Origin: Candidatus Nomurabacteria bacterium
GTDB lineage: Bacteria > Patescibacteriota > Minisyncoccia > Phycocordibacterales > UBA9973
Direction: 5' to 3'
Length of the DNA stretch: 64,000 bases
Assembly: GCA_031425235.1 (NCBI GenBank)
Contig: JANPIZ010000008.1
Location: 91,377 to 155,376, forward strand
The notes under the pieces are model-generated. The model searched no databases. It had not been told where the DNA came from and saw only the letters and a program-made list of their open reading frames with translations. The translations under genes were made by a program, and so were the position numbers. Shown piece by piece: positions 1-49,554 of the stretch (position 1 is its first letter; each line of letters begins with the position of its first letter).

Positions 1-357
1 GTGATGCTGATTTGAAAGGCGAGAGAGAACAAGGCGGTAGCCACCAAGGCTTCCCTTAAGCCATTTTGATATGCGGGCAATTGTCGTAGAAGAAAGCCCT
101 GTGCTCTCACTGATAGCATTGTACTGCACATCTCTTGAGAGTAGGGAAGCAGCTTCGAGTCTATTTGCGAATTCTTGTATTTCACCTTCAGTCATAAGGT
201 CACGTAGAAAAGATTCAGCTTCTTGTGTATTTTTCAAAGCCAAAAAAGCTTGCACGAGTTGCTTGTTTTCAGGTTGGTTCCAGTCAATGTTTGACCCGAT
301 ACCTTGAACCATCTCTACTGTTTTAATATTCGTATTTTTATTCATTCCTTTACTCAT
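1..357 (-). CDS. TrpR-like YerC/YecD family DNA-binding protein (3' end runs off the window)
   Basis: Minus-strand ATG at 355-357. Translation MSKGMNKNTNIKTVEMVQG...FLRDLMTEGEIQEFANRLEAASLL...ISESTGLSSTTIARISKWLKGSLGGYRLVLSRL matches the YerC/YecD (TrpR-like) family along its whole length. It is absent from the ORF track only because it has no in-window stop. Confidence 0.8.
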   Translation of the reverse strand, partial: MSKGMNKNTNIKTVEMVQGIGSNIDWNQPENKQLVQAFLALKNTQEAESFLRDLMTEGEIQEFANRLEAASLLSRDVQYNAISESTGLSSTTIARISKWLKGSLGGYRLVLSRLSNQHH

Positions 358-358
358 C

Positions 359-430
359 CCAGTACTAAAATTTTAAGTTTATATTAATATCGACTCTTGT
401 CCGTAATCAAAAATTTAGTACGGGACAAGT
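359..430 (-). repeat. Copy 1 (reverse orientation) of a ~70-bp TIR-bearing upstream cassette; abuts the yerC-like start codon
   Basis: About 85-90% identical to 10677-10745 and 21602-21673. Terminal inverted repeats are GTACTAAA(A)TTTT ... AAAATTTTAGTAC, with an internal cccgta/tacggg hairpin. Confidence 0.75.
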
Positions 431-443
431 ACAGCTACTTTAT

Positions 444-473
444 CAAACTAAAGTACTTTAGTCAAGTAAAGTA
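444..473. repeat. Copy 1 of a 29-nt motif containing the perfect palindrome CTAAAGTACTTTAG
   Basis: caaACTAAAGTACTTTAGTCAAGTAAAGTA is repeated almost exactly at 6337-6365. Confidence 0.7.
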
Positions 474-587: not shown

Positions 588-1004
588 TTAATAACTTCGA
601 TAATTGAAGGCACTTTGTATATCTTCAGATTTTAACATAAGACTTTTATTCCAACCAAAGGGAGAAGTTTTCACTTCAAACCCTTCAAATTGTCTGCATT
701 TTTCTAAAACCTGAAATGCAATATCTTTAGCAACTGTAGGGGTTGCTTGACTAGAACTTAGATGGTCAAACGCCTCGATCACAAGTTTTTTATTTCTCGC
801 AATTTTTTTAATATCATCGCAGATATCTTTGACTTGTTTTTGACCATCTTTGCTTTCAACTTGGAAGAGCACAAGTAAGCAATCTTTCATTTCTTCTTTT
901 GCTTTACCTGTTATATCTGCTGGTTCATAAACACCCCCTACTCGATTTGAAATAGTTATCGCTTCAGATGCCCATTCCTTGACGAATATCATTAATGCTT
1001 TCAT
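588..1004 (-). CDS. Free-standing archaeal-type threonyl-tRNA synthetase editing domain-like protein (DTD-like fold, putative Ser-tRNA(Thr) trans-editing factor)
   Basis: 138 aa. The C-terminal half, FDHLSSSQATPTVAKDIAFQVLEKCRQFEGFEVKTSPFGWNKSLMLKSEDI, follows the conserved AHLSS...P..A...L...G.EV.R.PFGW.K.F pattern of the Pyrococcus-type ThrRS N-terminal editing domain. No catalytic ThrRS domain is attached. Confidence 0.55.
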   Translation of the reverse strand: MKALMIFVKEWASEAITISNRVGGVYEPADITGKAKEEMKDCLLVLFQVESKDGQKQVKDICDDIKKIARNKKLVIEAFDHLSSSQATPTVAKDIAFQVLEKCRQFEGFEVKTSPFGWNKSLMLKSEDIQSAFNYRSY

Positions 1005-4936: not shown

Positions 4937-5725
4937 GTGGAAACAGAAAGTTCGAGCCAGATATATACCGTAAAAACTGAAGCGTTTGAAGGGCCATTTG
5001 GCCTTCTTTTGGATTTAGTTGAGAAGCGCAAACTTTTTATAAATGATGTATCCCTGGCCAGTGTTACTGAAGATTTCTTGAGCCATATGAATAGTCTCGG
5101 CGACAGCGGCTCTTTAAGTCCAGCCGAAATAACGAGCTTTATTCAAGTAGCTGCGACTCTCATACTCATCAAATCAAAATCTTTACTGCCAAATCTTTCT
5201 TTGACGGACGAAGAGCAGGGTGACATAAAAAACCTAGAAGAACGGCTGCGACTATATAGAATTTTCATGGGCTTGGGGGGCTCTGTGAAAAGTAGTTTTG
5301 GAAAAGAAATGATTTTTGCGCCACTTGAACGCAAGAATGAAATCCTGGTATTTTTACCCGACAGTAGAATTACCAAGGACACCATGATGGAATTTGCACG
5401 CAATGTGCTCGGCGGGATGCCAAAAAAGGTTTTCTTGCCCGAAGTCGAAGTACGCAAGGTTATCAATATTGAAGAAGTTATTGATAACTTAACACAACGA
5501 ATCCAGAGCGCAATCACAATGAGCTTTGCTGAATTTTCTGGTAAAAAATCCGGACAACACACTCGAGCAGAAAAGGTGACAGTGATCGTGAGTTTTCTTG
5601 CTATGCTGGAGATGATAAGAAATGGTATATTGAATGCTGTTCAGAATAATCACATGGAAGATATTATTATTGAGAAAATTCCAGACTCGGCACTAGTAGA
5701 AGAAGTCGCGGGTGAAATAAATTAA
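4937..5725 (+). CDS. scpA: segregation and condensation protein A
   Basis: GTG start. N-terminus FEGPFGLLLDLVEKRKLFINDVSLASVTEDFL is typical ScpA. It is followed immediately by scpB. Confidence 0.8.
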   Translation: METESSSQIYTVKTEAFEGPFGLLLDLVEKRKLFINDVSLASVTEDFLSHMNSLGDSGSLSPAEITSFIQVAATLILIKSKSLLPNLSLTDEEQGDIKNLEERLRLYRIFMGLGGSVKSSFGKEMIFAPLERKNEILVFLPDSRITKDTMMEFARNVLGGMPKKVFLPEVEVRKVINIEEVIDNLTQRIQSAITMSFAEFSGKKSGQHTRAEKVTVIVSFLAMLEMIRNGILNAVQNNHMEDIIIEKIPDSALVEEVAGEIN

Positions 5726-6325: not shown

Positions 6326-6336
6326 CTGACTTTATT

Positions 6337-6365
6337 CAACTAAAGTACTTTAGTCAAGTAAAGTA
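6337..6365. repeat. Copy 2 of the CTAAAGTACTTTAG-containing motif; abuts the start codon of Cys-rich paralogue 1
   Basis: Identical 27-nt core to 444-473. It ends 4 nt before the ATG at 6370. Confidence 0.7.
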
Positions 6366-6369
6366 AAAA

Positions 6370-8076
6370 ATGAAACAAGAAAGTGAAACAAAATCGTGCC
6401 AGAATTGCAAACAAGACTTTACTATCGAGCCGGACGATTTTGGATTTTATGAAAAAATAAAAGTACCTCTGCCAACTTTTTGCTCAGAATGCCGCAGGCA
6501 AAGAAGGCTTGCATGGAAGAATACATACAACTTATACAACAATTCTTGTAGTCTTTGTGGTAAAAACATTATTTCAATATATTCCCCTGATTCCTCTTTA
6601 ATTATTTACTGTGTTAGCTGTTTTTGGAGTGATAAATGGGATGCATATCAATACGGGCAAGATTTTGACCCTAATAGGTCTTTTTTTGAACAGTATATAG
6701 ATCTTAATAAAAAGGTACCAAAAATAGCTTTAATGAATGATGATGGTATTGCAAGTGTAAATAGTGCTTATTGTCACGATGTTGCTTTTTCGAAAAATTG
6801 CTACATGGTATTTATTTCCTGGAAACTTGAAAATGTGATGTATTCAGGAATGTTAAACAAGGGTCGCGAAATATGCGATTGCCTTTGCATGCAAGATTTT
6901 TGTGAGTATATGTACGAGTCAATGTTTGTAGATGAATGTTATAAATGCAGATATGTGACGTATGGTAGCATGCTACAAAATTGCGATTTTTGTTATGATT
7001 GTCGTGAGTGCAGTGATTGCTTTATGAGCTTTGGCTTGCGTAATAAAAAATATTTTTATAAGAACAAACAGTATTCCAAAGAAGAATACGAAAAAATTCT
7101 TAAATCTTATCAATTGCATACACGAACGGGTTGGGAAAGAGCCAAAAATGAATATAAAGAATTTATAATAACTTATCCTCGTCGTTTTGCTATGATAAGG
7201 AATTCAGTTAACTGTACGGGAGATGACCTTATAAGATGTAAAAACACGAGAGATTCCTTTTTTGCTCCCTTTAGTGAAGACTCTCGCTTTGTTGCAGGAG
7301 GGGTTAATTTTAAGAATTGTTATGATTTGTCTGGTGGAGGGGAAGTAGAGTATAGTTATGAATCTATCACGCCCGATCAATCATATAATAATTTTTTTAG
7401 TATCTATTCTTGGAAAAATAAAGAAATAGCTTATTGTGATAATTGTCATTCGTCTAATAACCTTTTTGGTTGTGCAAGCTTGAAAAAAGGTGAATACTCA
7501 ATATTAAATAAGAAATATTCAAAAGAAGATTATTTTAAATTAAAAGAAAAAATAATAATAAAAATGAAACATGATGGGGAATGGGGAGAATTTTTTCCAG
7601 TTCGATATTCATATTTTGGATATAATGAAACTGAAGCTTTTGATATGAATATTTTATCAAAACATGAAGCTGAAAATTTAAACTATAAATGGCGAGATAA
7701 TTTACAAAGAACTATTGGACAAGAAACTATCTCTCAAAAGGAAATACCAGATTCTATTTTTGATACAACTGAGTATATTTTATATGAAATTTTAAAATGT
7801 GAATCTTGCTCTCGAAATTATAAAGTTACGAACGACGAGCTGGTGTTTTACAAAAGAATGAATGTACCTATTCCAAAAATTTGCTTTTTCTGTAGAAATA
7901 AAAATCGCTTAAATACTAGAAATCCGTTTAAGCTTTGGCATCGCTCATGTATGTGTACTGTCAAGAATCACTTTCATGGAGAAAATAATTGTAAAATAGA
8001 ATTTGAAACTTCCTATGCCCCTGATCGGCCGGAGATGGTATATTGTGAAAAATGTTATCAAGCTGAAGTTTACTAG
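6370..8076 (+). CDS. Large cysteine-rich protein, paralogue 1 (unrecognised family; terminal zinc-ribbon-like motifs plus internally duplicated Cys-repeat core)
   Basis: 568 aa. N-terminal CQNCKQDF...FYEKIKVPLPTFCSECRRQRRL...C..C is repeated near the C-terminus (FYKRMNVPIPKICFFCRNKNRL...C.C). N-K-K-Y-S-K-E-E/D-Y occurs twice. The protein aligns end to end at roughly 40% identity with the ORF at 47848-49554. Confidence 0.8.
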   Translation: MKQESETKSCQNCKQDFTIEPDDFGFYEKIKVPLPTFCSECRRQRRLAWKNTYNLYNNSCSLCGKNIISIYSPDSSLIIYCVSCFWSDKWDAYQYGQDFDPNRSFFEQYIDLNKKVPKIALMNDDGIASVNSAYCHDVAFSKNCYMVFISWKLENVMYSGMLNKGREICDCLCMQDFCEYMYESMFVDECYKCRYVTYGSMLQNCDFCYDCRECSDCFMSFGLRNKKYFYKNKQYSKEEYEKILKSYQLHTRTGWERAKNEYKEFIITYPRRFAMIRNSVNCTGDDLIRCKNTRDSFFAPFSEDSRFVAGGVNFKNCYDLSGGGEVEYSYESITPDQSYNNFFSIYSWKNKEIAYCDNCHSSNNLFGCASLKKGEYSILNKKYSKEDYFKLKEKIIIKMKHDGEWGEFFPVRYSYFGYNETEAFDMNILSKHEAENLNYKWRDNLQRTIGQETISQKEIPDSIFDTTEYILYEILKCESCSRNYKVTNDELVFYKRMNVPIPKICFFCRNKNRLNTRNPFKLWHRSCMCTVKNHFHGENNCKIEFETSYAPDRPEMVYCEKCYQAEVY

Positions 8077-9351: not shown

Positions 9352-10667
9352 TGAATATAATAACAATACACATGAAAGCAATTTTTCGACACACAATAAT
9401 TACTGCTCTAAGACTAGAGGCTCAACTTGTATTGTATAAATACAAGCCATATATAATTGCAATTACTGGTTCAGTCGGTAAAACCTCAACCAAAGATGCC
9501 GTGTATGCAGTCATGTCAGAATTCACTGACGTTCGCAGAAGTGAAAAAAGTTTCAATAGTGAAATTGGACTACCTCTTACGATTCTCGGGCTTCCAAATG
9601 CGTGGAATAATCCCGTCGGTTGGCTCAAAAATTTTGCCAAAGGATTAAAATTAATATTATTGCCGAATACATATCCCAAATGGCTCGTGCTTGAAGTTGG
9701 TGTCGGTAAGCCAGGCGACATGGAACGTACGGGTTCTTGGCTTAGAACTGATGCAGTGATCATCACCGCCATAGGCGAGACTCCGGCGCACGTGGAGTTT
9801 TTTGCTTCACGTAAACATTTGATCGAAGAAAAAAGTGCTCTTATAAAAACGTTGAAAAAAGACGGAATTTTAATATTAAATGCTGACGATAAAGATGTGC
9901 TTGCCATGCACACAAAAACAAAAAATATTTTTGTAACATACGGATTTACAGAAAGTGCACACGTTGTGGCTTCTTCTGATACGGTACTGTACTCACGCGA
10001 AGGTATTCCTGAAGGAGTTATTTACAGAATTGATGAAGAAGGGAGAAGCTTACCAGTAGCTATTGAAGGTGTGTTTGGGAGGAATCATGTATATGCATCA
10101 CTTGCCGCTCTTACTTTGGCTTCCGGCCTTAAACTCAATATGGTCACAGCTGTAAACGCGCTCAAACGTTATGATGTACCTCCGGGGCGCATGCGGTTAC
10201 TTCGGGGGATTAATGGTTCAATTATTATTGATGATAGTTATAATTCTTCACCGCTTGCTTCCGAATCTGCACTCAAAACTCTCGGTGAAGTTACATGTAC
10301 CGGTAGAAAAATAGCTGTGCTCGGTGACATGCTCGAGCTTGGGCGGCATACCCATGAAACGCATAAGAATATAGGTAGTATTGTAAAAAAAGTCGCTGAC
10401 GTTCTTGTGGTAGTCGGGCCTCGGGCTAAAAGTATAGCCGAAGGCGCGCTCGAGGTAAAAATGGCTAAGAAAAATATTTATGAATTCAGTGATGCCTATC
10501 AAGCTGCGGCTTTTCTCAAATCATTTGTTTCAGGTGGTGATGTCGTTTTAATTAAAGGCTCGCAAGGCATGCGTATGGAGCGAGTGACTGAATCCATACT
10601 CCTTGACCAAGAACACAAAAACAAACTCCTTGTCCGACAAGATGCGGAATGGAAAAAAAAGAAATAA
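9351..10667 (+). CDS. murF: UDP-N-acetylmuramoyl-tripeptide--D-alanyl-D-alanine ligase (Mur ligase family)
   Basis: ITGSVGKTSTKD P-loop and Mur-ligase central and C-terminal domains. GTG start overlaps the mraY stop. Confidence 0.8.
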   Translation: MNIITIHMKAIFRHTIITALRLEAQLVLYKYKPYIIAITGSVGKTSTKDAVYAVMSEFTDVRRSEKSFNSEIGLPLTILGLPNAWNNPVGWLKNFAKGLKLILLPNTYPKWLVLEVGVGKPGDMERTGSWLRTDAVIITAIGETPAHVEFFASRKHLIEEKSALIKTLKKDGILILNADDKDVLAMHTKTKNIFVTYGFTESAHVVASSDTVLYSREGIPEGVIYRIDEEGRSLPVAIEGVFGRNHVYASLAALTLASGLKLNMVTAVNALKRYDVPPGRMRLLRGINGSIIIDDSYNSSPLASESALKTLGEVTCTGRKIAVLGDMLELGRHTHETHKNIGSIVKKVADVLVVVGPRAKSIAEGALEVKMAKKNIYEFSDAYQAAAFLKSFVSGGDVVLIKGSQGMRMERVTESILLDQEHKNKLLVRQDAEWKKKK

Positions 10668-10676
10668 TAAAAATAT

Positions 10677-10745
10677 TTGTCCCGTACTAAATTTTTGATT
10701 ACGGGGTATAATGATAAATATTAATATTTAAAATTTTAGTACTGG
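10677..10745 (+). repeat. Copy 2 of the ~70-bp TIR-bearing upstream cassette; abuts the protease start codon
   Basis: ttgtcccgtactaaatttttgattacgggg...aaaattttagtactgg followed directly by the ATG at 10747. Confidence 0.75.
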
Positions 10746-10746
10746 C

Positions 10747-11649
10747 ATGAAGGAAAAAATTCACAAACATATGTATAAGATATTTCTAGGAGTGCTCGCA
10801 CTCGCGGTAATTTTTTCTATTATATATACTGGCGTTCATTATTTTAATGTGTATAAACAACAACAGGCTGAAGCATTAGCAGTACAGAGCAAAGAGCAAT
10901 CTGAGATCCAAAGCGAAGCAGCTCTTAAAGATAAAGCTCGCGATGAGGAGATAGCTTTATTAAAGCAACAGCTTACCGAACTACAAAACAAACCTATTGA
11001 AACAAAAACAATAAACAATACCGTTCAAGTTGAGGCCAAAGATCCCGTAGCGAATATTGTTAAAAAATGGAGCCCTCGAGTAGCTCATATGGAATGCCAT
11101 TGGTTTGATACAAATGATAAGTTGTATGCAAAAGGTTCAGGTTCGGCAACACTTGTTAATTTTTATGGTTTGGGGATGCGAGCTGTTACGAATAAACATT
11201 TGATGGTATATAAAAGTTATCTCCCTAAAAGTTGTGATGTCGAACTTACCTCTGGCGCTACATATACAATACCTATAACGAAAGATAATGTAAGTATTGG
11301 CGAAAATGAAGACTGGGCATATGTGACCTTGCCGAAAGATGGTGTGCTGTCGTCGATAACTGCAAAAGATGTGCGTGCTTGTAAAAATGTTGAAGTAGGA
11401 GACAAAGTACTCATCTTAGGGTATCCCAAAATTGGCTCAAAAATAGGTCTTACTGTAACCGAAGGCATTGTTTCTGGAAATGATAAAAATTATTATATTA
11501 CGTCTGCCAAAATTGACAAAGGTAACTCGGGCGGCGCGGCTATTTTAGTGGAAGATGATTGCTACCTTGGTATTCCGTCAGCATCGGTTGTCGGACAAAT
11601 AGAAAGCCTCGGGCGAATACTTAAATCAAGCTTTGTAATAGGTGGATAG
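10747..11649 (+). CDS. membrane-anchored trypsin-like (S1) serine protease
   Basis: N-terminal TM helix. Catalytic His (TNKH), Asp and Ser (GNSGG) are in canonical order. Confidence 0.75.
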   Translation: MKEKIHKHMYKIFLGVLALAVIFSIIYTGVHYFNVYKQQQAEALAVQSKEQSEIQSEAALKDKARDEEIALLKQQLTELQNKPIETKTINNTVQVEAKDPVANIVKKWSPRVAHMECHWFDTNDKLYAKGSGSATLVNFYGLGMRAVTNKHLMVYKSYLPKSCDVELTSGATYTIPITKDNVSIGENEDWAYVTLPKDGVLSSITAKDVRACKNVEVGDKVLILGYPKIGSKIGLTVTEGIVSGNDKNYYITSAKIDKGNSGGAAILVEDDCYLGIPSASVVGQIESLGRILKSSFVIGG

Positions 11650-12810: not shown

Positions 12811-12934
12811 ATTTCAACCTCCTTTTCCTTATTAATTTTACCACAAACTCAAAAGGAATAGTTTTCAAAGGATAGTTGAAAAAAGCCTTTTAATATTTAA
12901 TATTTTGAGCCTCAGGTTTCCCGTGACGACGTGA

Positions 12935-13021
12935 TTGACAAATCAGTGTTTTTGTGATATACTATAAGAGTATGACTGGATTTAATTTTTTAATTCCAGA
13001 TCTCTTCGTTGAAAATAAAAT
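12935..13021 (+). promoter_or_regulatory. Promoter (TTGACA-N17-TATACT) plus conserved 5' leader, copy 1
   Basis: 100% identical over ~75 nt to 32085-32160. Contains the ctgga...tccag hairpin. Confidence 0.65.
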
Positions 13022-13024
13022 AAT

Positions 13025-13828
13025 ATGAAAATTTTGCAAAACAAAAAAGTCCGCTTTGCGGCAATTTTATTGGTTGCGTTGTTGGCAGCGTTGTCAACTC
13101 TTAATGCACAACCTGCGGAAGCAGTCACAGCCGAATTCGGCAACTACTTTGAAAGTGTTAAAAAGCTTAACCCCACGGTTAAGAATTTTCACACAATGAA
13201 CGTCGGCGAGGTCTATGGTTTGCCGGACGGCAAAACTGACCACCTCGAAGAAGGCGACACCGAAGGAATTTGGGGTCGCGAGCTGAGAAAATGGAATCAA
13301 CTTCGTTTGGATCCGGTGACCTCAGGTCAACCGTATGTAAACGGCGGAATTAGTCCCGATAACCCGGAACAGCTTGAACGTCAATTTGACAATCAAGCGC
13401 GATTTATGTCTGGGGGTCGTCAGTTTCCTGAACGCATCAGTCCCATTCAAAAAGGGAAAATTTTCGGCGAAGGACTCGTCGGCTATTTAGACCAAGGTTT
13501 TCAACCTCGTAAAATTGATGAGCCGGGCGTACCGGCATATCAGGCGACCTACAGATTCGCCAACGGGGAAGAAATTACCCTTCAATCTTTGATGGGTTGC
13601 ATGAACCCGATCGAAGAAGGTATTGGTCAAACGCGTAAAGGTTACACTTTCGTGCCGGACGGACAAAATCCGGATGTTGTTCCGCTCACGGTAGCGGACA
13701 ATAACGACAAGGGTAAAGACAAGGATTTCAATGGGAATTATATTCTCGGAGGATTTTTGTTTGCTTGTTTATTCGTTCGCCAACCCCCGTCGAAAGACCG
13801 GAAAAAATTACTATTTCTTTTGGTGTAG
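13025..13828 (+). CDS. secreted hypothetical protein (signal peptide), anomalously GC-rich
   Basis: N-terminus KKVRFAAILLVALLAALSTLNAQPAEA. Body is visibly GC-richer than surrounding genes. A possible C-terminal extension by frameshift is described in the findings. Confidence 0.6.
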   Translation: MKILQNKKVRFAAILLVALLAALSTLNAQPAEAVTAEFGNYFESVKKLNPTVKNFHTMNVGEVYGLPDGKTDHLEEGDTEGIWGRELRKWNQLRLDPVTSGQPYVNGGISPDNPEQLERQFDNQARFMSGGRQFPERISPIQKGKIFGEGLVGYLDQGFQPRKIDEPGVPAYQATYRFANGEEITLQSLMGCMNPIEEGIGQTRKGYTFVPDGQNPDVVPLTVADNNDKGKDKDFNGNYILGGFLFACLFVRQPPSKDRKKLLFLLV

Positions 13829-15098: not shown

Positions 15099-15824
15099 TT
15101 ATTTCTCTAAATAATATTTAAGTGTGTAAATCCAATCTTCATCTATCGTGTCGCCATTCAGTTTTTGCCCGAGCAACCATTGTAAATAACCTTTGTCAGT
15201 TTTTACGACGTCTTCTATTTTTTGCCCGTTATATTTACCAAATTTAAAAGTGTGGAAAAGTGAAGGGTGTGATGATATTTCTATCATTTTTTGTATGGCC
15301 TCATCTTCATTTAGATTTTCTTGCTCTATAACTTTTTTTTGCAACCGATCAAAAAGCTTTTCGAGAACCAAGACATCTCCGAGAGCATCGTGAGCTGTGG
15401 CTACTACATCAAGATCGAGGAAGTAACGAAGATATTGTAAGTTGTATTTTTCTATCTTGTCATCTTTGTCAAGGTGTCGAGCCAGCCGCAGCGTATCAAT
15501 GAAATTTTTGGGTCGTATATCTTCTTTTTCAATAACCATAAGATCAAAAAGGGCATTGTGAGCTACGACGACAGAATTTTCATCTTCAAAAAGAGTTTTT
15601 ACTTTTTCATAATCTTTGCTTTGTGTAAAAACTTCTTTCCCGTCTACCATTTTATTTGTAATGTGGTGAATTGCGGATGCTTCTGCTGGGATTTTTATCT
15701 CCGGCTTATAGAGCTCGTTGAATGTTTCACCCACAGTCTTATAAGCTAATTGCACTAAGTAGTCCTTTTCAGTATTTCCGGTCGTTTCTGTATCAAAAAA
15801 TATAAGGTTTTGCTCTGTTTTCAT
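15099..15824 (-). CDS. DEDDh 3'-5' exonuclease (DnaQ-like) with extra C-terminal domain
   Basis: Exo motifs FFDTETTG, AHNALFD and HDALGD. Confidence 0.8.
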   Translation of the reverse strand: MKTEQNLIFFDTETTGNTEKDYLVQLAYKTVGETFNELYKPEIKIPAEASAIHHITNKMVDGKEVFTQSKDYEKVKTLFEDENSVVVAHNALFDLMVIEKEDIRPKNFIDTLRLARHLDKDDKIEKYNLQYLRYFLDLDVVATAHDALGDVLVLEKLFDRLQKKVIEQENLNEDEAIQKMIEISSHPSLFHTFKFGKYNGQKIEDVVKTDKGYLQWLLGQKLNGDTIDEDWIYTLKYYLEK

Positions 15825-20305: not shown

Positions 20306-21592
20306 ATGAATCTAGTAAAAAATCAGAAAGTTAAAAAATGGTCAAAAGTTTTTTCTGTTGGATGGTTTTTAGCTGTTCGTCAAATTAAAGGATCAAATAA
20401 ATCCACTACATTTCTGATCATATTTATTATGATGCTTACTTTTTTGAATCTTGTAGTTGTGTCAGGAATTTTGATCGGACTTATTGAAGGAGGTAACAGA
20501 GCAAACAAAGAGCAATACACTGGAGATGTTATCATCACTACGCTTACCGGTAAAGAAGAAATAGGGCATACGAATGAAATCAAAAGTACGTTAGCGCAAA
20601 TGTCTGGAGTGTCTGATTTTAGTGTGCGTTATCTAGCGCCAGTGCAAATCGAGGCAAATTATAAAACGAGACGCGATTTTAGTGAACTTCGAGACACGGC
20701 GGGTACCCAGGTTTCTGGTATTTCTTTGAAAGATGAAGAGGCCTTGTCAAGAATCTCAACATTTGTCGTCGAAGGTGAATTTTTAGATGAAAAAGAAAGT
20801 GGATATATTGTACTCGGAGCCAATTTGCTTTACCGCTACTCAGCAGGCTTTGGTGATTTCTTCGCTTCACTCGATGGTGTGTATCCTGGTGACGAAGTTA
20901 AGGTCACTGTTGGAGAAAATACAAAAACTTTTATTGTAAAAGGAATTTTAGATACTAAGGTTGACGCAATGTCATTACGAGCGTTTCTCACTCAAGCTGA
21001 TTTTTTAAGGTTGGTAGATAAACCAACTTTAAACGCCAACGAAGTCGCAATACGCATTGACCCTGTATCAACAGCAACACCAGAATCAATAAAAAATAAT
21101 TTAGTACAAATGAAATTTAATGAAGACGGAAAAATTCAGACGGCCATAGAAGCTATACCGGACTTCCTAAATCAAATCCGGATTGCGTTTAGTCTTCTGG
21201 GGAATGTTATCGGACTTATCGGTATCGTTGTCGCTTCGATCACTATATTTATCGTTATTTTTATTAACGCGGTCACCCGGAGAAAGTATATAGGTATCAT
21301 GAAAGGTATAGGAATATCGGATAAAGCTATTGAGGTTTCGTATATTTTTCAATCTATTTTTTACGCATTGATTGGAGGAACGCTTGGAATTGCTATCGTC
21401 TATCTAGTCCTCGTACCTTTTTTCAATGCATATCCACTCAATTTTCCATTTTCTGACGGTATACTTGTGGCACCGGTGAACGAAACAATGTTTAAATTTT
21501 TCTTGTTGATGTTGGTCACCCTAATCGCTGGATATATACCTGCTCGAAACATTGTAAAGAAAAATACACTCGACAGTATTTTAGGAAGGTAG
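20306..21592 (+). CDS. ABC transporter permease (FtsX/MacB-like)
   Basis: TM1, large periplasmic loop, then a 3-TM C-terminal bundle. Confidence 0.7.
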   Translation: MNLVKNQKVKKWSKVFSVGWFLAVRQIKGSNKSTTFLIIFIMMLTFLNLVVVSGILIGLIEGGNRANKEQYTGDVIITTLTGKEEIGHTNEIKSTLAQMSGVSDFSVRYLAPVQIEANYKTRRDFSELRDTAGTQVSGISLKDEEALSRISTFVVEGEFLDEKESGYIVLGANLLYRYSAGFGDFFASLDGVYPGDEVKVTVGENTKTFIVKGILDTKVDAMSLRAFLTQADFLRLVDKPTLNANEVAIRIDPVSTATPESIKNNLVQMKFNEDGKIQTAIEAIPDFLNQIRIAFSLLGNVIGLIGIVVASITIFIVIFINAVTRRKYIGIMKGIGISDKAIEVSYIFQSIFYALIGGTLGIAIVYLVLVPFFNAYPLNFPFSDGILVAPVNETMFKFFLLMLVTLIAGYIPARNIVKKNTLDSILGR

Positions 21593-21601
21593 AAAATAAT
21601 A

Positions 21602-21673
21602 CTTGTCCCGTACTAAATTTTTGATTACGGGGCATAAAAATAAACATTATTAATTTAAAATTTTAGTACCGGG
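21602..21673 (+). repeat. Copy 3 of the ~70-bp TIR-bearing cassette, inside the operon and abutting the ABC ATPase start codon
   Basis: cttgtcccgtactaaatttttgattacgggg...ttaaaattttagtaccggg followed directly by the ATG at 21674. Confidence 0.75.
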
Positions 21674-22354
21674 ATGATTAAAGTAAAAAATTTAGTAAAA
21701 ACATATAAGGATGGCGATATTGAGACTTCTGTGTTACGAGGGATTGATTTGGAAGTGAGAGAAGGCGAATTCCTCGGAATTATGGGAAAGTCAGGAGCAG
21801 GAAAGTCGACTTTCATGTATCAGATTGGACTACTAGACCATCCAACTGGGGGAGAAATTGTTTTAAATAATATCAATACTGAAAGTATGACTACGGAGGA
21901 GAGAACTCATCTGCGTCTTACAGAGCTAGGTTATGTGTTTCAAGATTATGCGCTTATTCCTGAACTTACTGCAGCTGAAAACGTAATGATCCCGCTTCTG
22001 ATGAAGGGACATACGAAAACTGAGGCCCGTGATGTGTCGGTAAAAATGCTTGAACGTATCGGCTTGTCGCATAGAATGGATAATAAGCCGAGCCAGCTTT
22101 CTGGAGGAGAACAACAACGAGTATCGATCGCGAGAGCGACAGCGCACAATCCTAAGATTTTATTTGCCGACGAACCAACGGCAAACCTTGATACCACGTC
22201 AGGACTTTCGATAATTGAACTTTTTAAAGATTTACATAAAGCTGGGCAAACTATTGTGATGGTTACCCATGAGGAAGAGTACGCAAAGTATTGCGACAGA
22301 GTTGTATACCTCGAAGATGGAAAAATAGTCCGAGAATTTAAACCTGGTAAATAA
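21674..22354 (+). CDS. ABC transporter ATP-binding protein (MacB/LolD-like)
   Basis: Walker A GKSGAGKST, signature LSGGEQQRV and Walker B ILFADEPT. Confidence 0.9.
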   Translation: MIKVKNLVKTYKDGDIETSVLRGIDLEVREGEFLGIMGKSGAGKSTFMYQIGLLDHPTGGEIVLNNINTESMTTEERTHLRLTELGYVFQDYALIPELTAAENVMIPLLMKGHTKTEARDVSVKMLERIGLSHRMDNKPSQLSGGEQQRVSIARATAHNPKILFADEPTANLDTTSGLSIIELFKDLHKAGQTIVMVTHEEEYAKYCDRVVYLEDGKIVREFKPGK

Positions 22355-22828: not shown

Positions 22829-24254
22829 ATATTACTACACAATTGGACTAGAAATACACGCAGAGCTAAAAACTTTGACGAAGATGTTTTGTGGGTGTAA
22901 GAATGACCCAGATGAAACTAAACCAAATGTAAATATTTGCCCGGTGTGTATGGCTCATCCAGGTGCTCTTCCGGTAATAAATAAAAAGGCTATAGAACAA
23001 GTAATAAAAGTTGGCCTTGCTGTCGATGCAAAGATTGCTGACTTTTCAGAATTTGATCGTAAAAACTATTTCTATCCAGATATTCCAAAGGGCTACCAGA
23101 TTTCACAATATAAATATCCAATAGTTTCTGGCGGCCATTTGGCTGATATGGACATCACCCGTATTCACCTCGAGGAAGATACTGCGAACAATAAACACCG
23201 CGGAGAAATATCACTTATCGATTTCAATCGTGCCGGAGTGCCGCTTATGGAGCTCGTAACTGAGCCGCATACATTTGAGTCAGCGGAAGAAGCTGCTAAA
23301 ACAGCGAGTAATTTTGCCAAAGAATATCAACTCATTTTATGGTACCTCGGAGCTTCGGAAGCAAATATGGAAAAAGGCGAGATGCGTGTAGAAGCTAATG
23401 TATCTGTGTCTCCAGATAAAGACAAAAAATGGACAAATTATGTAGAGGTGAAAAACCTAAATTCTTTTAAAAGTGTCGAGCGAGCTATCAAATTTGAGGT
23501 AGAACGCATGACAGCTTTGTGGAATGAAGGTAAAGAGAATGAAATAATAAAAGAGACGAGAGGTTTCGACGAAAGTAAACAAAAAACATTTTCACAGCGC
23601 TCAAAAGAAAACGCTGAGGATTATAGGTATTTCCCTGATCCAGATTTACCGAAACTCAAGCTTTACGAAGCTTTTGATATAGAAAAAATGAAAGCTGAAT
23701 TACCAGAATTACCAGTAGCTAAACGCGCTCGTTATAAAAATGATTTCGGAATTAAAGATGAGGATATAGAAATATATATAAATGACCTTGAAATAGGCTA
23801 TTGGTTTGAGAGTATTGCAAAATTATTAGGTGAAAAGGATAAAGTAAAAATTGCATCGAATTACATAACTTCAGATTTCTTAGGTCTCAAAAAGACCAAC
23901 TTGGCGACCAGGTCGCCAAGTGCGGAAAATTTCACTGAGTTGATAAATTTAGTTTCAGAAAATAAATTATCTTCACGAAGCGCAAAAGATATTCTTGCTA
24001 TGATAGTCATAAACGATGAATCACCATTACAAATAGCTACAGAAAAGAATTTACTTCAGAGTAATGATGAAGGTGCACTAAAAGAAATTGTCCAAAAAAT
24101 AATTGATGAAAATCCTGAGCCAGTGGCTTCGTATAAATCAGGTAAGGAAAATGCTATTATGTCACTCGTCGGGAAAATAATAAAAGCTTCCAATGGTGCT
24201 GCAAACCCTCAAGTGGTTATCAAACTTCTCAAAGAAATGCTCGCCTCGTCGTAG
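22821..24254 (+). CDS. gatB: Asp/Glu-tRNA amidotransferase subunit B
   Basis: Full-length GatB with the C-terminal YqeY-like domain. Contains the 23-bp palindromic insert at 23899-23921. Confidence 0.9.
   Translation: MNKYYYTIGLEIHAELKTLTKMFCGCKNDPDETKPNVNICPVCMAHPGALPVINKKAIEQVIKVGLAVDAKIADFSEFDRKNYFYPDIPKGYQISQYKYPIVSGGHLADMDITRIHLEEDTANNKHRGEISLIDFNRAGVPLMELVTEPHTFESAEEAAKTASNFAKEYQLILWYLGASEANMEKGEMRVEANVSVSPDKDKKWTNYVEVKNLNSFKSVERAIKFEVERMTALWNEGKENEIIKETRGFDESKQKTFSQRSKENAEDYRYFPDPDLPKLKLYEAFDIEKMKAELPELPVAKRARYKNDFGIKDEDIEIYINDLEIGYWFESIAKLLGEKDKVKIASNYITSDFLGLKKTNLATRSPSAENFTELINLVSENKLSSRSAKDILAMIVINDESPLQIATEKNLLQSNDEGALKEIVQKIIDENPEPVASYKSGKENAIMSLVGKIIKASNGAANPQVVIKLLKEMLASS
23899..23921. 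repeat. 23-bp perfect palindrome inserted in frame in gatB
   Basis: acttggcgaccaggtcgccaagt encodes NLATRSPSA. The identical sequence occurs in topA at 59851-59873. Confidence 0.85.
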
Positions 24255-32030: not shown

Positions 32031-32072
32031 TACTCCAAACATTTATTTATATATGTAAAATGGTTACAGTGT

Positions 32073-32160
32073 TTGACAAAACACTGTTTTTGTGATATAC
32101 TATAAGAGTATGACTGGATTTAATTTTTTAATTCCAGATCTCTTCGTTGAAAATAAAATT
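32073..32160 (+). promoter_or_regulatory. Promoter (TTGACA-N17-TATACT) plus conserved 5' leader, copy 2
   Basis: Identical to 12947-13021. Confidence 0.65.
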
Positions 32161-32649
32161 ATGAAAAATAAAAAAGTGAGCCTGCTTCGAACGGCACTTT
32201 TTACGTTTTTGTTCCTGGTTACGTTATTGGGGTCAATAACAAAAACGTCGGCACAAGTAACCTCAACTGCTACCTATAAAGTTGAGATACAAAAATTTAC
32301 TGTCGGAAGCTTATTCCCGAAAGCGCTCATCACGTTTTCGGAAAAAATTGCAGATCGGGAGGAATATTTTCGGTCTACAACAGCGAGTTTCGCTATAAAG
32401 TCCAAAGACGCTTCGCCTTTAATGGCGAAGTTGCAACAACAGGCGGTCGAAACCCCGTCACAAGGGATTTTGAACAAATTTTCCTTTTATATCAAAGATG
32501 ATGTAATGGAAATCCATTTTATTTTGAGAAATGAATTCACTGATTGTGAATTCATCGAAAAAATCGAAAAAATCATCGAAACGATAAAAGAAGAAAAATT
32601 TAAAAATAAAGTTCTGAAAAGAACATCGCTGACGTTCACGCAAAAATAA
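32161..32649 (+). CDS. secreted hypothetical protein (signal peptide homologous to that of the 13025 gene)
   Basis: MKNKKVSLLRTALFTFLFLVTLLGSITKTSAQV. The track ORF starts upstream at 32092, but the leader is shared, so ATG 32161 is preferred. Confidence 0.55.
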   Translation: MKNKKVSLLRTALFTFLFLVTLLGSITKTSAQVTSTATYKVEIQKFTVGSLFPKALITFSEKIADREEYFRSTTASFAIKSKDASPLMAKLQQQAVETPSQGILNKFSFYIKDDVMEIHFILRNEFTDCEFIEKIEKIIETIKEEKFKNKVLKRTSLTFTQK

Positions 32650-33815: not shown

Positions 33816-34709
33816 ATGGCATCAACAGAAGGAGTATCACACGAAATAACCTTATTTGCAGAACCAGTTGCCCATATTGGAAATTTTAATGTAACCAATG
33901 CTCTTCTTTCATCCTGGGCTGTTGTTATAATCATAATTATTTTATCTATAATTATTCGTAAAACTTTACGTGAAGTTCCAAGTAAAGTGCAAAATATTTT
34001 TGAAATTATTATCGAAGGCGCACTCGATCTCTGTGATCAAGTTACAAACAATAGAAATATTTCAATTCAAATCTTTCCTATCGCTATATCTGTTTTCTTT
34101 TTTATACTACTCAATAATTGGCTTGGGTTATTACCCCTTGGAGGGGTTGGCCTTATTGAAAAAGGGGAACATGGACTTGCTTTTATACCGTTCTTGCGCG
34201 GAGGTACGGCTGATATTAATACCACGATCGCCCTCGCAGTTATGGCTGTAATAGGCGCAAATGTCTTTGGGGTGTTTTCTGTCGGGCTCTGGAAAACTTT
34301 CAATAAATATGTTAATCTGAAGGCACTCGGAGGTATTTTTACCAAAATACGTAAAGATCCAACGGTTATTATCGTAGCTCCGATAACGTTCTTTGTAGGT
34401 TTAATTGAAATTGTGGGTGAATTTGCAAAGGTTGCATCGCTTTCATTTCGTCTTTTTGGAAATGTATTTGCAGGGGAAGTACTTCTGGCATCCATGGCAG
34501 CATTGATTGCGTATATTATACCGGTACCCTTCCTTTTCTTGGAAATTCTCGTAGGAGTAATTCAAGCACTTATCTTCTCAATGCTTTTAGTTGTGTATTT
34601 TACAATCGGAGCCACTGATCACGATAGCCACGACGAAGAGCACGAGAAAGGTCACGCTGTTGCACCTGCCCGAAATGCTACGCATAACGTTGCAGGCGGA
34701 CATGCATAA
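33816..34709 (+). CDS. atpB: F0F1 ATP synthase subunit a (with His-rich C-terminal tail)
   Basis: RLFGNVFAGEV with the essential Arg. The tail reads TDHDSHDEEHEKGHA... Confidence 0.9.
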   Translation: MASTEGVSHEITLFAEPVAHIGNFNVTNALLSSWAVVIIIIILSIIIRKTLREVPSKVQNIFEIIIEGALDLCDQVTNNRNISIQIFPIAISVFFFILLNNWLGLLPLGGVGLIEKGEHGLAFIPFLRGGTADINTTIALAVMAVIGANVFGVFSVGLWKTFNKYVNLKALGGIFTKIRKDPTVIIVAPITFFVGLIEIVGEFAKVASLSFRLFGNVFAGEVLLASMAALIAYIIPVPFLFLEILVGVIQALIFSMLLVVYFTIGATDHDSHDEEHEKGHAVAPARNATHNVAGGHA

Positions 34710-34760
34710 GTACAGTTCCGTTTTGCATATAAAATTTTGTATGTAAAACGGAACTGTACT
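34709..34760 (+). promoter_or_regulatory. 21-bp near-perfect RNA hairpin between atpB and atpE
   Basis: agtacagttccgttttgcata / tatgtaaaacggaactgtact (one G-U pair), 10-nt loop, followed by TTTT. Confidence 0.7.
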
Positions 34761-34790
34761 TTTAAAATAAGTAAAGGTCATTATTATTAA

Positions 34791-47847: not shown

Positions 47848-49554
47848 ATGACAAGTGAAACAAAAAATTGTCAAAATTGTAAAACAGATTTTGTAATAGA
47901 ATCTGGAGACTTTAACTTTTATGAAAAAATAAAAGTTCCACCGCCGACCTTTTGTCCGAACTGTAGACTTACGCGTAGATTTCTCCATTCAAATGAAATG
48001 GTGTTATACAAACGTAAATGCGACCTGACTCAAAAAGATATTTTTAGCATGTATCCACCTAAAACACTTTTTCCTGTCTATGAGACATCGGAGTGGTATT
48101 CTGACAAATGGGATGCATATGAATATGGGATGGATTTCGATGAGACCAGACCCTTTTTAGAGCAATTTTTAGAGCTCCAAAATAAAGTACCGCGTATGGC
48201 TCTGACACAACAAGGTCAAACAATTAATAGTGCGTATACTCATAGAGTATCTTATCCAAAAAACTCATACATGGCTTTTCGAGCTTCTTATCCAGAGGAT
48301 TGTTTGTATGTGTATAACGCCAAGTACACTCGAAATTGCGCTGACTCAATATGGATTTTTGACTCAGATCTTTGTTATGAATGTATAAATGTAGAAAATT
48401 GTTACAACTTAAAATATAGTCAAGAATGCAAAGATTCCCGTGATTCCAGCTTTTTATACAGTTGTAAAAACACCTCAAATTCAACTTTATGTGTTAATTT
48501 AGTCAACGCAGAGTGCTGTATTTGGAATAAAAAATATACAAAAGAAGAGTACGTCAAAAAATTAGCAAACATGGGACTCAATAAATTTTCTAACGTTGAG
48601 AAGCTAAAGAAAGAGTTTGAAGAGTTTAGAAAGAAATTTCCACAAAGAGCTGTGGCTTCATTAAAATCTGAGCAAGTGTCTGGTAACTGGTTTTCGGGTT
48701 GCAAAAATGTTCATGAATCATTTGATTGCGTCAATGTAAAAGATGGCAAATATTTATTCATGGTTTTCAATGCCGAAGATTGTATGGATTTTTTCGAATG
48801 GGGCAACAAAGCCGAGCAAATCTATGAGACAACTAATGCTGGTCTCAATGTTGCCAGATTATACTTTTGCTTTCAGTGTTGGATGGGAGCAACAGATCTG
48901 TATTACTGCAACACATGTCCTGGTGCACGAAACTGCTTTGGTTGCGTGGGTCTAAAGAAAGGCGAATACTCTATTCTAAACAAGAAGTATTCGAAAGAAG
49001 AATATGAAATTTTAAAAGAAAAAATTATTAAGCATATGCAAAAAATGCCTTTTATAAGTAATACTGGTATTGAATATAAATTTGGGGAATTTTTTCCTCC
49101 AGAATTTTCAGATCATGCTTATAATGAAACCATCGCAAATTATTATTTTCCACTTTCACAAGAGGAAGCTTTGTCTCGCGGTTATAAATGGAAAGACAAG
49201 GAAAAAGTAGTCCACCAGACGACAGTCAAAGCTAAGGATCTGCCAGACACAATAGAAGAAGTAACTGACGCCATACTCAATGAAATCATAGAGTGCGGAG
49301 AAAAAGATAATCCAGAATCAGTTGGAGCGTTTCGCATAACTCCAAATGAGCTCAATTTTTATAGGAAAATGAATATTCCACTACCGAGAGTATGCTTTAG
49401 CATCAGACACTTGCGCCGGATGGACAGGAGACCAAAACTAAACATTTTTAAGAGAAAATGTGATAAGTGTAGTGTTGAAGTTGAAACAGTATATACTAAA
49501 GAGCATGCACCGGTATTGTATTGTGAAAAATGTTATCAACAAGAAGTTTACTAA
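47848..49554 (+). CDS. Large cysteine-rich protein, paralogue 2
   Basis: 568 aa with the same architecture as 6370-8076. Identical C-terminus YCEKCYQ.EVY. Conserved LKKGEYSILNKKYSKEEY block. Confidence 0.8.
   Translation: MTSETKNCQNCKTDFVIESGDFNFYEKIKVPPPTFCPNCRLTRRFLHSNEMVLYKRKCDLTQKDIFSMYPPKTLFPVYETSEWYSDKWDAYEYGMDFDETRPFLEQFLELQNKVPRMALTQQGQTINSAYTHRVSYPKNSYMAFRASYPEDCLYVYNAKYTRNCADSIWIFDSDLCYECINVENCYNLKYSQECKDSRDSSFLYSCKNTSNSTLCVNLVNAECCIWNKKYTKEEYVKKLANMGLNKFSNVEKLKKEFEEFRKKFPQRAVASLKSEQVSGNWFSGCKNVHESFDCVNVKDGKYLFMVFNAEDCMDFFEWGNKAEQIYETTNAGLNVARLYFCFQCWMGATDLYYCNTCPGARNCFGCVGLKKGEYSILNKKYSKEEYEILKEKIIKHMQKMPFISNTGIEYKFGEFFPPEFSDHAYNETIANYYFPLSQEEALSRGYKWKDKEKVVHQTTVKAKDLPDTIEEVTDAILNEIIECGEKDNPESVGAFRITPNELNFYRKMNIPLPRVCFSIRHLRRMDRRPKLNIFKRKCDKCSVEVETVYTKEHAPVLYCEKCYQQEVY

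Follow-up and report, generated by a model that had tools for sequence, protein, structure and literature searches.

Three copies of a 73-nt cassette at gene starts

The stretch analysed here, 64,000 nucleotides (nt) of Candidatus Nomurabacteria contig JANPIZ010000008.1 and hereafter called the window, carries three copies of a short palindromic cassette, each ending directly in front of the ATG of a gene. Copy 1 (358-430, reverse strand; 73 nt; nhmmer E=2.9e-16) runs from its first base, an A at 430, to the last base before the ATG at 358. It adjoins the ATG of a gene for a TrpR/YerC-like regulator (1-357, reverse strand; PF01371, E=1.5e-17), of which 119 codons are present before it runs off the window. 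Copy 2 (10675-10746, forward strand; 72 nt; E=1e-18) is intercistronic: it starts 7 nt past the stop codon (10665-10667) of a MurF-like ligase gene and has the variant end GGC, followed by the ATG at 10747 of a gene that Pfam assigns to a Trypsin_2-type serine protease (10747-11649, forward strand). Copy 3 (21601-21673, forward strand; 73 nt; E=5e-20), also intercistronic, starts 8 nt past the stop codon of an FtsX-permease gene (21590-21592) and adjoins the ATG at 21674 of an ABC-transporter ATPase gene (21674-22354, forward strand; Pfam). A preliminary description of the window, made from its letters alone, had placed three such copies beside the ATGs of unrelated genes. We confirm this placement with the bounds refined as above, and the Pfam assignments (Trp_repressor-like, Trypsin_2 protease and ABC ATPase) agree with the identities given there and with the location of the third copy inside an operon, between the permease and ATPase genes.

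Read in the sense of the gene, the window copies consist of A(C/T)TTGTCCCGTACTAAATTTTTGATTACGG, some 24 AT-rich bases, TT(T)AAAATTTTAGTAC(T/C)GG(G/C) and then ATG. The 28-nt 5′ block TTGTCCCGTACTAAATTTTTGATTACGG is identical in all three, and a 21-mer from it, GTACTAAATTTTTGATTACGG, occurs three times in the window against 0.00 expected from 100 shuffles. The terminal inverted repeat reported earlier is real, with arms ACYTGTCCCGTACTAAATTTTTGATTA and TAATTAAAATTTTAGTACTGGG, and the 72-73 nt between the outer ends contain stop codons in every frame. Each of the three copies lies sense to the gene starting at its 3′ end. A nhmmer profile search of the 64-kb window found no copy beyond these three.

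A repeat family docked onto start codons

The size of the family was assessed by two scans, which returned at least 116 genome stretches and at least 120 metagenome stretches; the counts that follow are among the matches listed. The first scan used an exact 19-mer from the 5′ arm against one-genome-per-species GTDB contigs and left the 3′ half free. The second used a 20-mer, the 3′ arm plus ATG, against metagenomes and left the 5′ half free. Together they yielded at least 235 further loci, individually designated by L-numbers (e.g., L017), which secures the status of a repeat family that a lack of other copies would have weakened. All but one of the first-scan matches are labelled Candidatus Nomurabacteria, Paceibacterota, Patescibacteria or (mis)labelled Saccharibacteria metagenome-assembled genomes (MAGs), often with several contigs per genome, and the single outsider is a chance match in Aquimarina. 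Second-scan matches come mostly from groundwater and sediment metagenomes, and viral contigs scanned for the cassette held no copies. The window shares only 70-75% nucleotide identity with any fetched locus and therefore represents a separate species.

Since each scan left one half of the cassette free, that half can be counted. The 3′ arm and ATG follow 61-65 nt downstream in 113 of the 120 first-scan anchors, and long open reading frames (ORFs) follow in turn. Of the seven exceptions, one is the Aquimarina chance match, two are contig ends, two have other starts (GTG, and ATA/ATT in the case of a methionine aminopeptidase), and the remaining two are copies with slight degeneration. Conversely, the 5′ arm is present in about 115 of 117 second-scan copies. 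In all, more than 94% of copies dock to start codons, and the orientation relative to the gene is always identical. The docking at translation starts is thus borne out in over 200 copies, as is the constant orientation first described in the window. The earlier text had held that copies lying elsewhere than at start codons would favour a purely selfish element; the association proved nearly absolute.

The genes behind the cassette, judged from N-terminal sequences and the Pfam hits in the window, are of many kinds, housekeeping genes for the most part. Among them are Obg, RelA/SpoT, ribosomal proteins S14, S16, S9 and L17, seryl-tRNA synthetase (SerRS), peptidyl-tRNA hydrolase, ClpP, dihydrofolate reductase (DHFR), a PilC-like protein, HPF, Ddl, RuvA, RsmI and the TrpR-like protein. 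The window holds 3 copies in 64 kb and the flanks of the fetched loci about one extra copy per 80 kb. This corresponds very roughly, as an estimate and not a census, to some 10-40 copies per ~0.8-Mb genome, or ~1-5% of genes marked. Most copies are 70-74 nt in total, with a long class of 104-111 nt; the core varies in both sequence and length, and the spacing between the arms ranges from ~24 to more than 60 nt. A literature search that included exact sequence strings found no earlier description of the cassette.

The cassette as a predicted whole leader or whole spacer

The upstream end of the cassette is positioned as regularly as its downstream end. Upstream of the cassette, strong −10 hexamers cluster so that 6-8 nt separate their 3′ end from its first base; this holds for 27 of 123 copies (14 with TGn), over a background of ~1-2 per position. 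In cassette-free genes, a −10 box lies 6 nt before the ATG in 179 of 1824 ORFs of the fetched Nomurabacteria sequence (108 with TGn), and because this spacing recurs we conclude that leaderless mRNAs are widely used in these genomes. The first cassette base occupies the place where the A of a leaderless ATG would be. In fact, the promoter of copy 1 (437-465, reverse strand; TTGACT-17-TAAAGT with TG) ends 6 nt before base 430, and copy 1 is predicted to be the complete 5′ leader of the TrpR/YerC-like gene.

Intercistronic copies follow a second rule. About 64% of copies (130/204) start within 40 nt of an upstream stop codon on the same strand, and 94 of these 130 start 1-6 nt past it (mode 4), which matches the commonest natural stop-to-ATG spacing. 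Spacers of 1-6 nt make up 72% of cassette-bearing junctions compared with 36% of cassette-free junctions. It follows from this phasing with −10 boxes or stop codons that the cassette would be transcribed as a unit; most likely, it is a strictly oriented cis-element that forms the whole 5′ leader or the whole intercistronic spacer of its gene. A scan for intrinsic terminators (GC-rich hairpin plus U tract) at the window copies found none, and the helix described below precedes the AUG and the coding sequence.

Leaderless genes of the window include those starting at 15824 (reverse), 17811, 24288, 29440, 43449 (reverse), 45252, 58665 (reverse), 62675 and 6370. Their −10 boxes are often TGnTAnAAT and end 6-7 nt before the ATG, and few window genes carry a Shine-Dalgarno sequence. 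Among the few with a clear one is the gene at 588-1004 (reverse strand), which encodes a stand-alone 138-residue protein matching the archaea-type threonyl-tRNA synthetase editing domain (PF08915, E=1.6e-17). The 3′ end of 16S rRNA was sought for complementarity, and the fetched sequence holds no rRNA gene.

These positions bear on the idea of a DNA-level cassette, which we regard as very unlikely, whether as a portable promoter or as an operator bound by the TrpR/YerC-like protein or some other repressor. Near-invariant inverted half-sites without significant covariation would suit a dimeric DNA-binding protein, the cassette precedes the TrpR-like gene in at least four genomes, and some long-form cores hold the promoter-like pairs TTGAGT-18-TATAAT or TAGACA-17-TAGATT. 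However, a palindromic operator needs neither absolute orientation nor docking to an ATG, and the cassette lies downstream of the −10 box and the predicted start site, with most copies inside operons. The variable arm spacing, together with a 10-nt insertion that can occur in one arm, fits a hairpin better than a two-site DNA operator. A scan of window copies 1-3 for sigma-70-like promoters (−35 and −10 boxes 16-18 nt apart) found none. Consequently, of the MITE-like (miniature inverted-repeat transposable element) mobile promoter or translation-initiation cassette suggested in the preliminary description, the MITE-like anatomy and the docking to starts stand, while the promoter part does not: with the −10 boxes upstream of it, the cassette is a leader rather than a promoter.

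An operator bound by the adjacent TrpR-like protein, likewise proposed at first, finds no support. Dozens of unrelated downstream genes, the strict orientation, the mostly intercistronic location and the variable arm spacing all speak against the cassette as a TrpR/YerC operator. The TrpR-like gene has a separate, different palindrome, CTAAAGTACTTTAG, in its promoter: the core AAAGTACTTT lies in the −35/−10 spacer within 437-465, and the same spacer palindrome is found upstream of the TrpR-like gene in L024, L026 and L123, and also in L025 near 4940. The corresponding motif, ACTTTAT(C/T)(A)AACTAAAGTACTTTAGTCAAGTAAAGT, occurs in the window at 437-478 and at 6329-6370, the latter directly upstream of the leaderless gene for a 568-residue protein at 6370. 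This spacer palindrome is probably the operator of the TrpR/YerC-like regulator, separate from the cassette.

A predicted irregular hairpin that would close on the start codon

On the sense strand, positions U4 to A27 can pair with positions −22 to +3, giving 23 base pairs, a bulged U at −4 and one U-U mismatch. In the pair map of copy 1, the 5′ arm (positions 4-27; UGUCCCGUACUAAAUUUUUGAUUA) occupies 404-427 and pairs with the 3′ arm (positions −22 to −1) at 358-379, both on the reverse strand; the ATG follows at 357-355. The 5′ arm contains an anti-start-codon, UGU, which is conserved opposite the AUG and would close it through the pairs U6-A, G5-U and U4-G. Single window copies fold at −15.8 to −25.1 kcal/mol (z −2.0 to −4.4), with copy 1 at −25.1 kcal/mol (z=−4.4), and folds of the opposite strand are weaker.

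Comparison of 144 distinct copies reveals that 96.8% of cells in the helix are paired, as against at most 52% when the partner columns are slid. RNAalifold independently recovers the same helix, including the A and U of the AUG. The helix does not extend into codon 2, as positions +4 to +6 pair no better than chance. Single-sided transitions keep the pairing of the sense strand in 47 cases as opposed to 16, and 17 of them strengthen the pairing with the AUG while 6 weaken it. This strand bias in the substitutions is suggestive of pairing in the transcript.

The window copies also contain the internal CCCGTA/TACGGG hairpin noted earlier, from which two mutually exclusive RNA folds had been proposed. 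Across the family, however, this small hairpin is only 86% paired and absent from about a quarter of copies: it is unpaired in 18-37 of the 144 copies per position and missing from whole subfamilies. The two alternative folds are therefore not a conserved property of the family. This weighs against a ligand- or temperature-sensing riboregulator that would switch between the small CCCGUA/UACGGG hairpin and the long helix, a reading that we find scarcely probable. A riboregulator or thermosensor leader, as first suggested, is compatible with the data in that the long helix pairs the AUG, and both folds are possible in the three window copies. With one A-U and two G-U pairs, the helix would close the AUG weakly, as RNA thermometers do. 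Yet no part of the cassette is less conserved than the core, which would have to form the ligand pocket and whose length varies. There is no Rfam match to support such a riboregulator either: a search with Rfam 15, one of the checks proposed at the outset, returned only four tRNAs for the whole window at gathering score, and copy 3 searched with E up to 10 gave chance miRNA and snoRNA matches far below threshold.

One candidate binding factor was considered and dropped. The string GUACUGGGAUG resembles the SELEX (systematic evolution of ligands by exponential enrichment) consensus of CsrA. A tblastn search of 1.7 Mb, equivalent to about two genomes, detected neither CsrA nor Hfq, which is a weak negative.

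Old copies, conserved arms and exact empty sites

The cassette is present or absent at orthologous genes in a patchy manner. Obg is leaderless in the window (...GCGGTAGAATCATAGG|ATGGCA), and L017, L071 and L047 carry the cassette between this same promoter and ATGGC. Similarly, SerRS and RelA/SpoT are leaderless in the window and have promoter, cassette and ATG in L101 and L074. The operon genes S14, L17, S9 and RsmI occur with or without the cassette depending on species. Where empty and filled orthologous sites were compared (Obg, S14 and SerRS), they differ by exactly the cassette, with a boundary ambiguity of at most 1 nt (an A), and no target-site duplication is present. TA-type or duplicated flanks, which had been suggested as a check, are thus not seen at these sites.

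When 29 orthologous pairs, each drawn from different species, are compared, the proteins are 74% identical and the third codon positions 49%, whereas the parts of the arms that lie outside the search strings are 92-94% identical and the core 75%. We therefore find the arms 92-100% conserved where synonymous sites are saturated, which places them under strong purifying selection at the sequence level. This conservation, in turn, argues for a host-level function and a sequence-specific partner. Core identity is 0.81 at orthologous loci and ~0.72 between unrelated copies of different genomes (0.721; p=0.004). As cores are more alike at orthologous loci and not within a genome, the copies are old and vertically inherited. 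Concerted evolution or a recent burst is rejected, since the within-genome value (0.716) is no higher than that between genomes.

A purely selfish MITE without host function has to be weighed here. Such an element would survive directly 5′ of an ATG because its hairpin folds away and does least harm there, and the needs of its transposase would conserve the arms. Much of the anatomy agrees with this: terminal inverted arms surround a core of varying sequence and length, subfamilies of short, long and mini-hairpin type occur at different genes, and presence or absence at orthologous sites is precise. Correia elements, moreover, are likewise co-transcribed and hairpin-forming (PMC2649163, PMC10969869). 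However, arms 92-100% identical between species with saturated synonymous sites, and old vertical copies without recent bursts, weigh against it. Neither target-site duplications nor any partner element is seen: in 1.7 Mb of flanks, no other element shares the arms, arm pairs never lie far apart, and no ORF is bordered by unpaired arms. The absolute orientation, the docking of more than 94% of copies to start codons and the lack of copies in viral contigs also speak against it. We therefore consider a purely selfish element unlikely. The mobility suggested for the cassette in the preliminary description fares accordingly, with neither duplication nor any sign of recent amplification. Targeting of CAT on the opposite strand in the manner of IS200/IS605 may be considered as well, but a 3-nt target alone cannot explain start-codon specificity, and no transposase was seen.

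The family includes several subfamilies. In one, a 10-nt mini-hairpin, ACGGCTTCGCC (compensated form ACGACTTCGTC), is inserted in the 5′ arm after GTA. It is found in L132, L174, L182, L192, L199, L201, L219 (two copies) and L235, at different genes and several times in the same sample. A second subfamily (33 of 214 distinct copies, e.g., L017:5627-5702(−), L040:6713-6788(−), L184:1464-1539, L218 and L233) carries an upstream ORF (uORF) of 10 codons with an MTTINNNLKF-like product, whose start lies at −40 and whose stop is the UAG in the 3′ arm, 7 nt before the main AUG. It comprises the ‘AATGACCA’ cores and most long forms and is absent from the three window copies. Translation of this uORF would open the helix.

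Long-form cores with the promoter-like pairs mentioned above would give transcripts that hold only the 3′ arm. Promoter-like long cores or 3′-half forms occur in L137, L176, L195, L218 and L233, in L150, L156, L159, L200 and L227, and in L152 and L181; in two copies only the 3′ half is present, immediately downstream of a −10 box of its own. We also note hairpins of ~40 nt that share the foot of the cassette and have no ATG after them, at L032 (reverse strand, ~5080-5123), L057 (~5489-5535) and L187 (~715-765), with the sequences GTCCCGTACTGAGC...GCTCTGATACTGGGAT and GTCTCGTAGTG...CTACTACTGGGAT. These may be a related mini-family or decayed copies.

A possible gate or processing site at the start codon

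From position, pairing and conservation we infer that the cassette acts as RNA rather than as DNA. The reading we prefer, at about an even chance, is that of a domesticated, MITE-like palindromic leader hairpin that gates the translation start or directs mRNA processing. In this proposal, the arms would pair into an irregular hairpin of ~23 base pairs (bp) that puts the conserved UGU on the AUG. Because of this pairing the start codon would be closed by default, and the base of the hairpin would bring beside the AUG either the 5′ end of the transcript, three bases ahead of the paired 5′ strand, or an upstream stop codon (1-6 nt away). Three non-exclusive modes of action, all of which fit the data, may be envisaged: (I) gating, in which a ribosome that stops 1-6 nt upstream would release the AUG by unwinding the 5′ arm (translational coupling), with a helicase, temperature or a binding factor as the opener of promoter-proximal copies instead; (II) processing, in which the double-strand-specific RNase III would cut the helix; and (III) protection, in which a 5′-terminal helix would shield the message from the 5′-end-dependent RNase J, while an intercistronic helix would insulate neighbouring cistrons. 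As to origin, the anatomy and the patchy distribution among orthologues suggest MITE-like insertion just 5′ of ATGs in a lineage rich in leaderless genes, with the copies later kept by selection.

Several observations weigh against this proposal. Covariation over the 144 copies amounts to 2 double changes, one in L105 (C-G to G-C) and one in L036 (U-A to C-G, together with a GUG start), which is not above shuffles, and the RNAalifold covariation term is −0.12; base pairing as a selected trait is therefore unproven. The arms are in fact too invariant for the helix to be judged by covariation, and they are conserved as sequence, which points to a sequence-specific partner. The strand bias of the substitutions shrinks to 29 vs 16, a modest excess among non-independent copies, once gains from G-U to Watson-Crick pairs are set aside. 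Coupling cannot open the ~30% of copies that lack an upstream ORF. Initiation should be blocked by a stable helix that begins at −1, and an opener or a nuclease is thus required. Finally, the mechanism may differ among subfamilies, as 15% of copies have the 10-codon uORF and some have promoter-like long cores.

Processing can also be stated as a more specific alternative, in which RNase III or a dedicated hairpin endonuclease would cut at or near the 3′ foot of the helix and so release leaderless or near-leaderless mRNAs from operons and leadered transcripts. Intergenic RNase III sites of phage T7 and cleavage by Cas6/Csy4 at the foot of a hairpin are working precedents. The 3′ end of the cassette lies exactly at the ATG, the lineage is widely leaderless, and cassette-bearing and leaderless versions of one gene alternate between species. 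Conservation of both arms as sequence, together with the bulge and the U-U mismatch, fits recognition by a protein. With 23 pairs, one bulge and one mismatch, the helix has the size of an RNase III substrate (irregular, at least ~20 bp). Signature genes for RNase III (rnc) are present in three loci, L023, L050 and L089, in line with the retention of RNase III, RNase J and PNPase by genomes of the Candidate Phyla Radiation (CPR) (PMC12641178). However, RNase III normally cleaves within a helix instead of at the terminal pair, and the analysis turned up no candidate for a dedicated nuclease. We judge cleavage at the foot to be improbable.

A broader form of the same idea appears to us just as doubtful: the cassette could be the cis-signal of a lineage-wide post-transcriptional system particular to these ultra-small bacteria, whose sequence-specific factor would either cut the foot of the hairpin, making leaderless mRNAs from operons, or let ribosomes move directly to the AUG across the closed hairpin, coming from the 5′ end of the transcript or from an upstream stop codon. 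Room for foot cleavage is left by the exact docking to the ATG, by the way leaderless versions alternate with cassette-bearing ones, and by the conservation of the bulge and the mismatch. Were there such a common signal, a few per cent of genes, including those for Obg, RelA/SpoT, ribosomal proteins and tRNA synthetases, would be under one switch; foot cleavage would make the cassette a natural counterpart of engineered Csy4 insulators.

Implications

Gene regulation in Patescibacteria (CPR) is almost unknown, as these organisms are uncultured and have very few recognisable regulators. The cassette is a single, easily recognised 73-nt signal tied to the point of translation start, conserved far beyond neutral expectation and present at core growth genes. 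Should the preferred reading of a start-codon gate or processing hairpin hold, the cassette would give these bacteria a major element of global control and would be the first known case of a repeat family that docks specifically onto start codons; it would also show how a gene can first tolerate a mobile palindrome at its most sensitive position and later co-opt it. In practice, the cassette marks true start codons in Nomurabacteria MAGs and can aid their annotation, and it is short enough for direct reporter and in vitro translation tests.

Other repeats in the window

The window contains further repeats distinct from the cassette. The 568-residue protein encoded behind the TrpR-type palindrome (6370-8076) has a paralogue at 47848-49554 (nucleotide repeats D2-D4, spacing 41472). 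Neither has a Pfam match, and the family is multi-copy, with relatives in L025, L034, L035, L075, L083 and L106. A 94-nt direct repeat, 96% identical between 12931-13024 and 32069-32162, consists of a promoter (TTGACA-17-TATACT) and a leader hairpin, GACTGGATTTAATTTTTTAATTCCAGATC. It precedes two ORFs without Pfam match (13025-13828 and one near 32163) and represents a second, different shared leader. A perfect 26-nt palindrome, ACTTGGCGACCAGGTCGCCAAGT, occurs at 23898-23923 and 59849-59874, 36 kb apart. Lastly, a 27-nt inverted repeat without spacer (AAGTACAGTTCCGTTTTGCATATAAAA / TTTTGTATGTAAAACGGAACTGTACTT; 34708-34761) directly follows a gene ending at 34709.

Comparison with known systems

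The closest likeness is to Correia elements of Neisseria (CREE, Correia repeat enclosed elements, or NEMIS, Neisseria miniature insertion sequences) and, more loosely, to the ERIC/IRU elements (enterobacterial repetitive intergenic consensus, intergenic repeat units) of enterobacteria, which are short, multi-copy, non-coding elements with inverted ends and a variable core (PMC2649163; PMC10969869; PMC2229807). Elements of this type are co-transcribed, vary in presence between related genomes and form long RNA hairpins that RNase III binds or cuts, altering the expression of adjacent genes (PMC2649163; PMC10969869; PMC2229807). CREE have 26-bp terminal inverted repeats, a TA duplication, an integration host factor (IHF) site and promoters generated by their ends, and they occur in both orientations (PMC2649163). 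The cassette shares the multi-copy nature, the inverted ends, the variable core, the (here predicted) transcription, and presence or absence among related genomes. Unlike the Correia elements so described, it has no duplication, a single orientation, one end fixed at the start codon and no promoter in the window copies. The distance of Correia elements from genes varies, and a single genus has them. For the cassette, no recent amplification is seen, the first base lies at the predicted transcription start or 1-6 nt past a stop codon, and conservation of the arms extends over many species of a candidate phylum.

A second likeness concerns the irregular helix of ~20-25 bp between cistrons or in leaders. 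Hairpins of phage T7 at R1.1-type sites and of the Escherichia coli pnp and rnc leaders have this size and conserved mismatches, and they set mRNA ends and translation efficiency. In contrast to the cassette, they are neither dispersed repeats nor start-adjoining; their cleavage is demonstrated, whereas cleavage of the cassette is a hypothesis.

Third, the cassette resembles hairpins that occlude a start, in which an upstream complementary segment holds the initiation codon in a helix. In the MS2 coat/replicase coupling structure and in the fourU and ROSE thermometers, a terminating ribosome or heat opens such a helix. These structures are gene-specific, usually mask a Shine-Dalgarno sequence and are not portable, whereas the cassette has no Shine-Dalgarno sequence and places the same 73 nt before dozens of unrelated genes.

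Finally, the repetitive extragenic palindromic (REP) sequences and bacterial interspersed mosaic elements (BIME) are likewise abundant intercistronic palindromes, which are transcribed and affect mRNA stability. They are 20-40 nt long with a GTAG-type head, can have either orientation, are located for the most part at gene 3′ ends, and are associated with the gene of a REP-associated tyrosine transposase (RAYT). The cassette, which lacks a GTAG-type head, is ~73 nt long, keeps a single orientation and always lies 5′ of a start codon.

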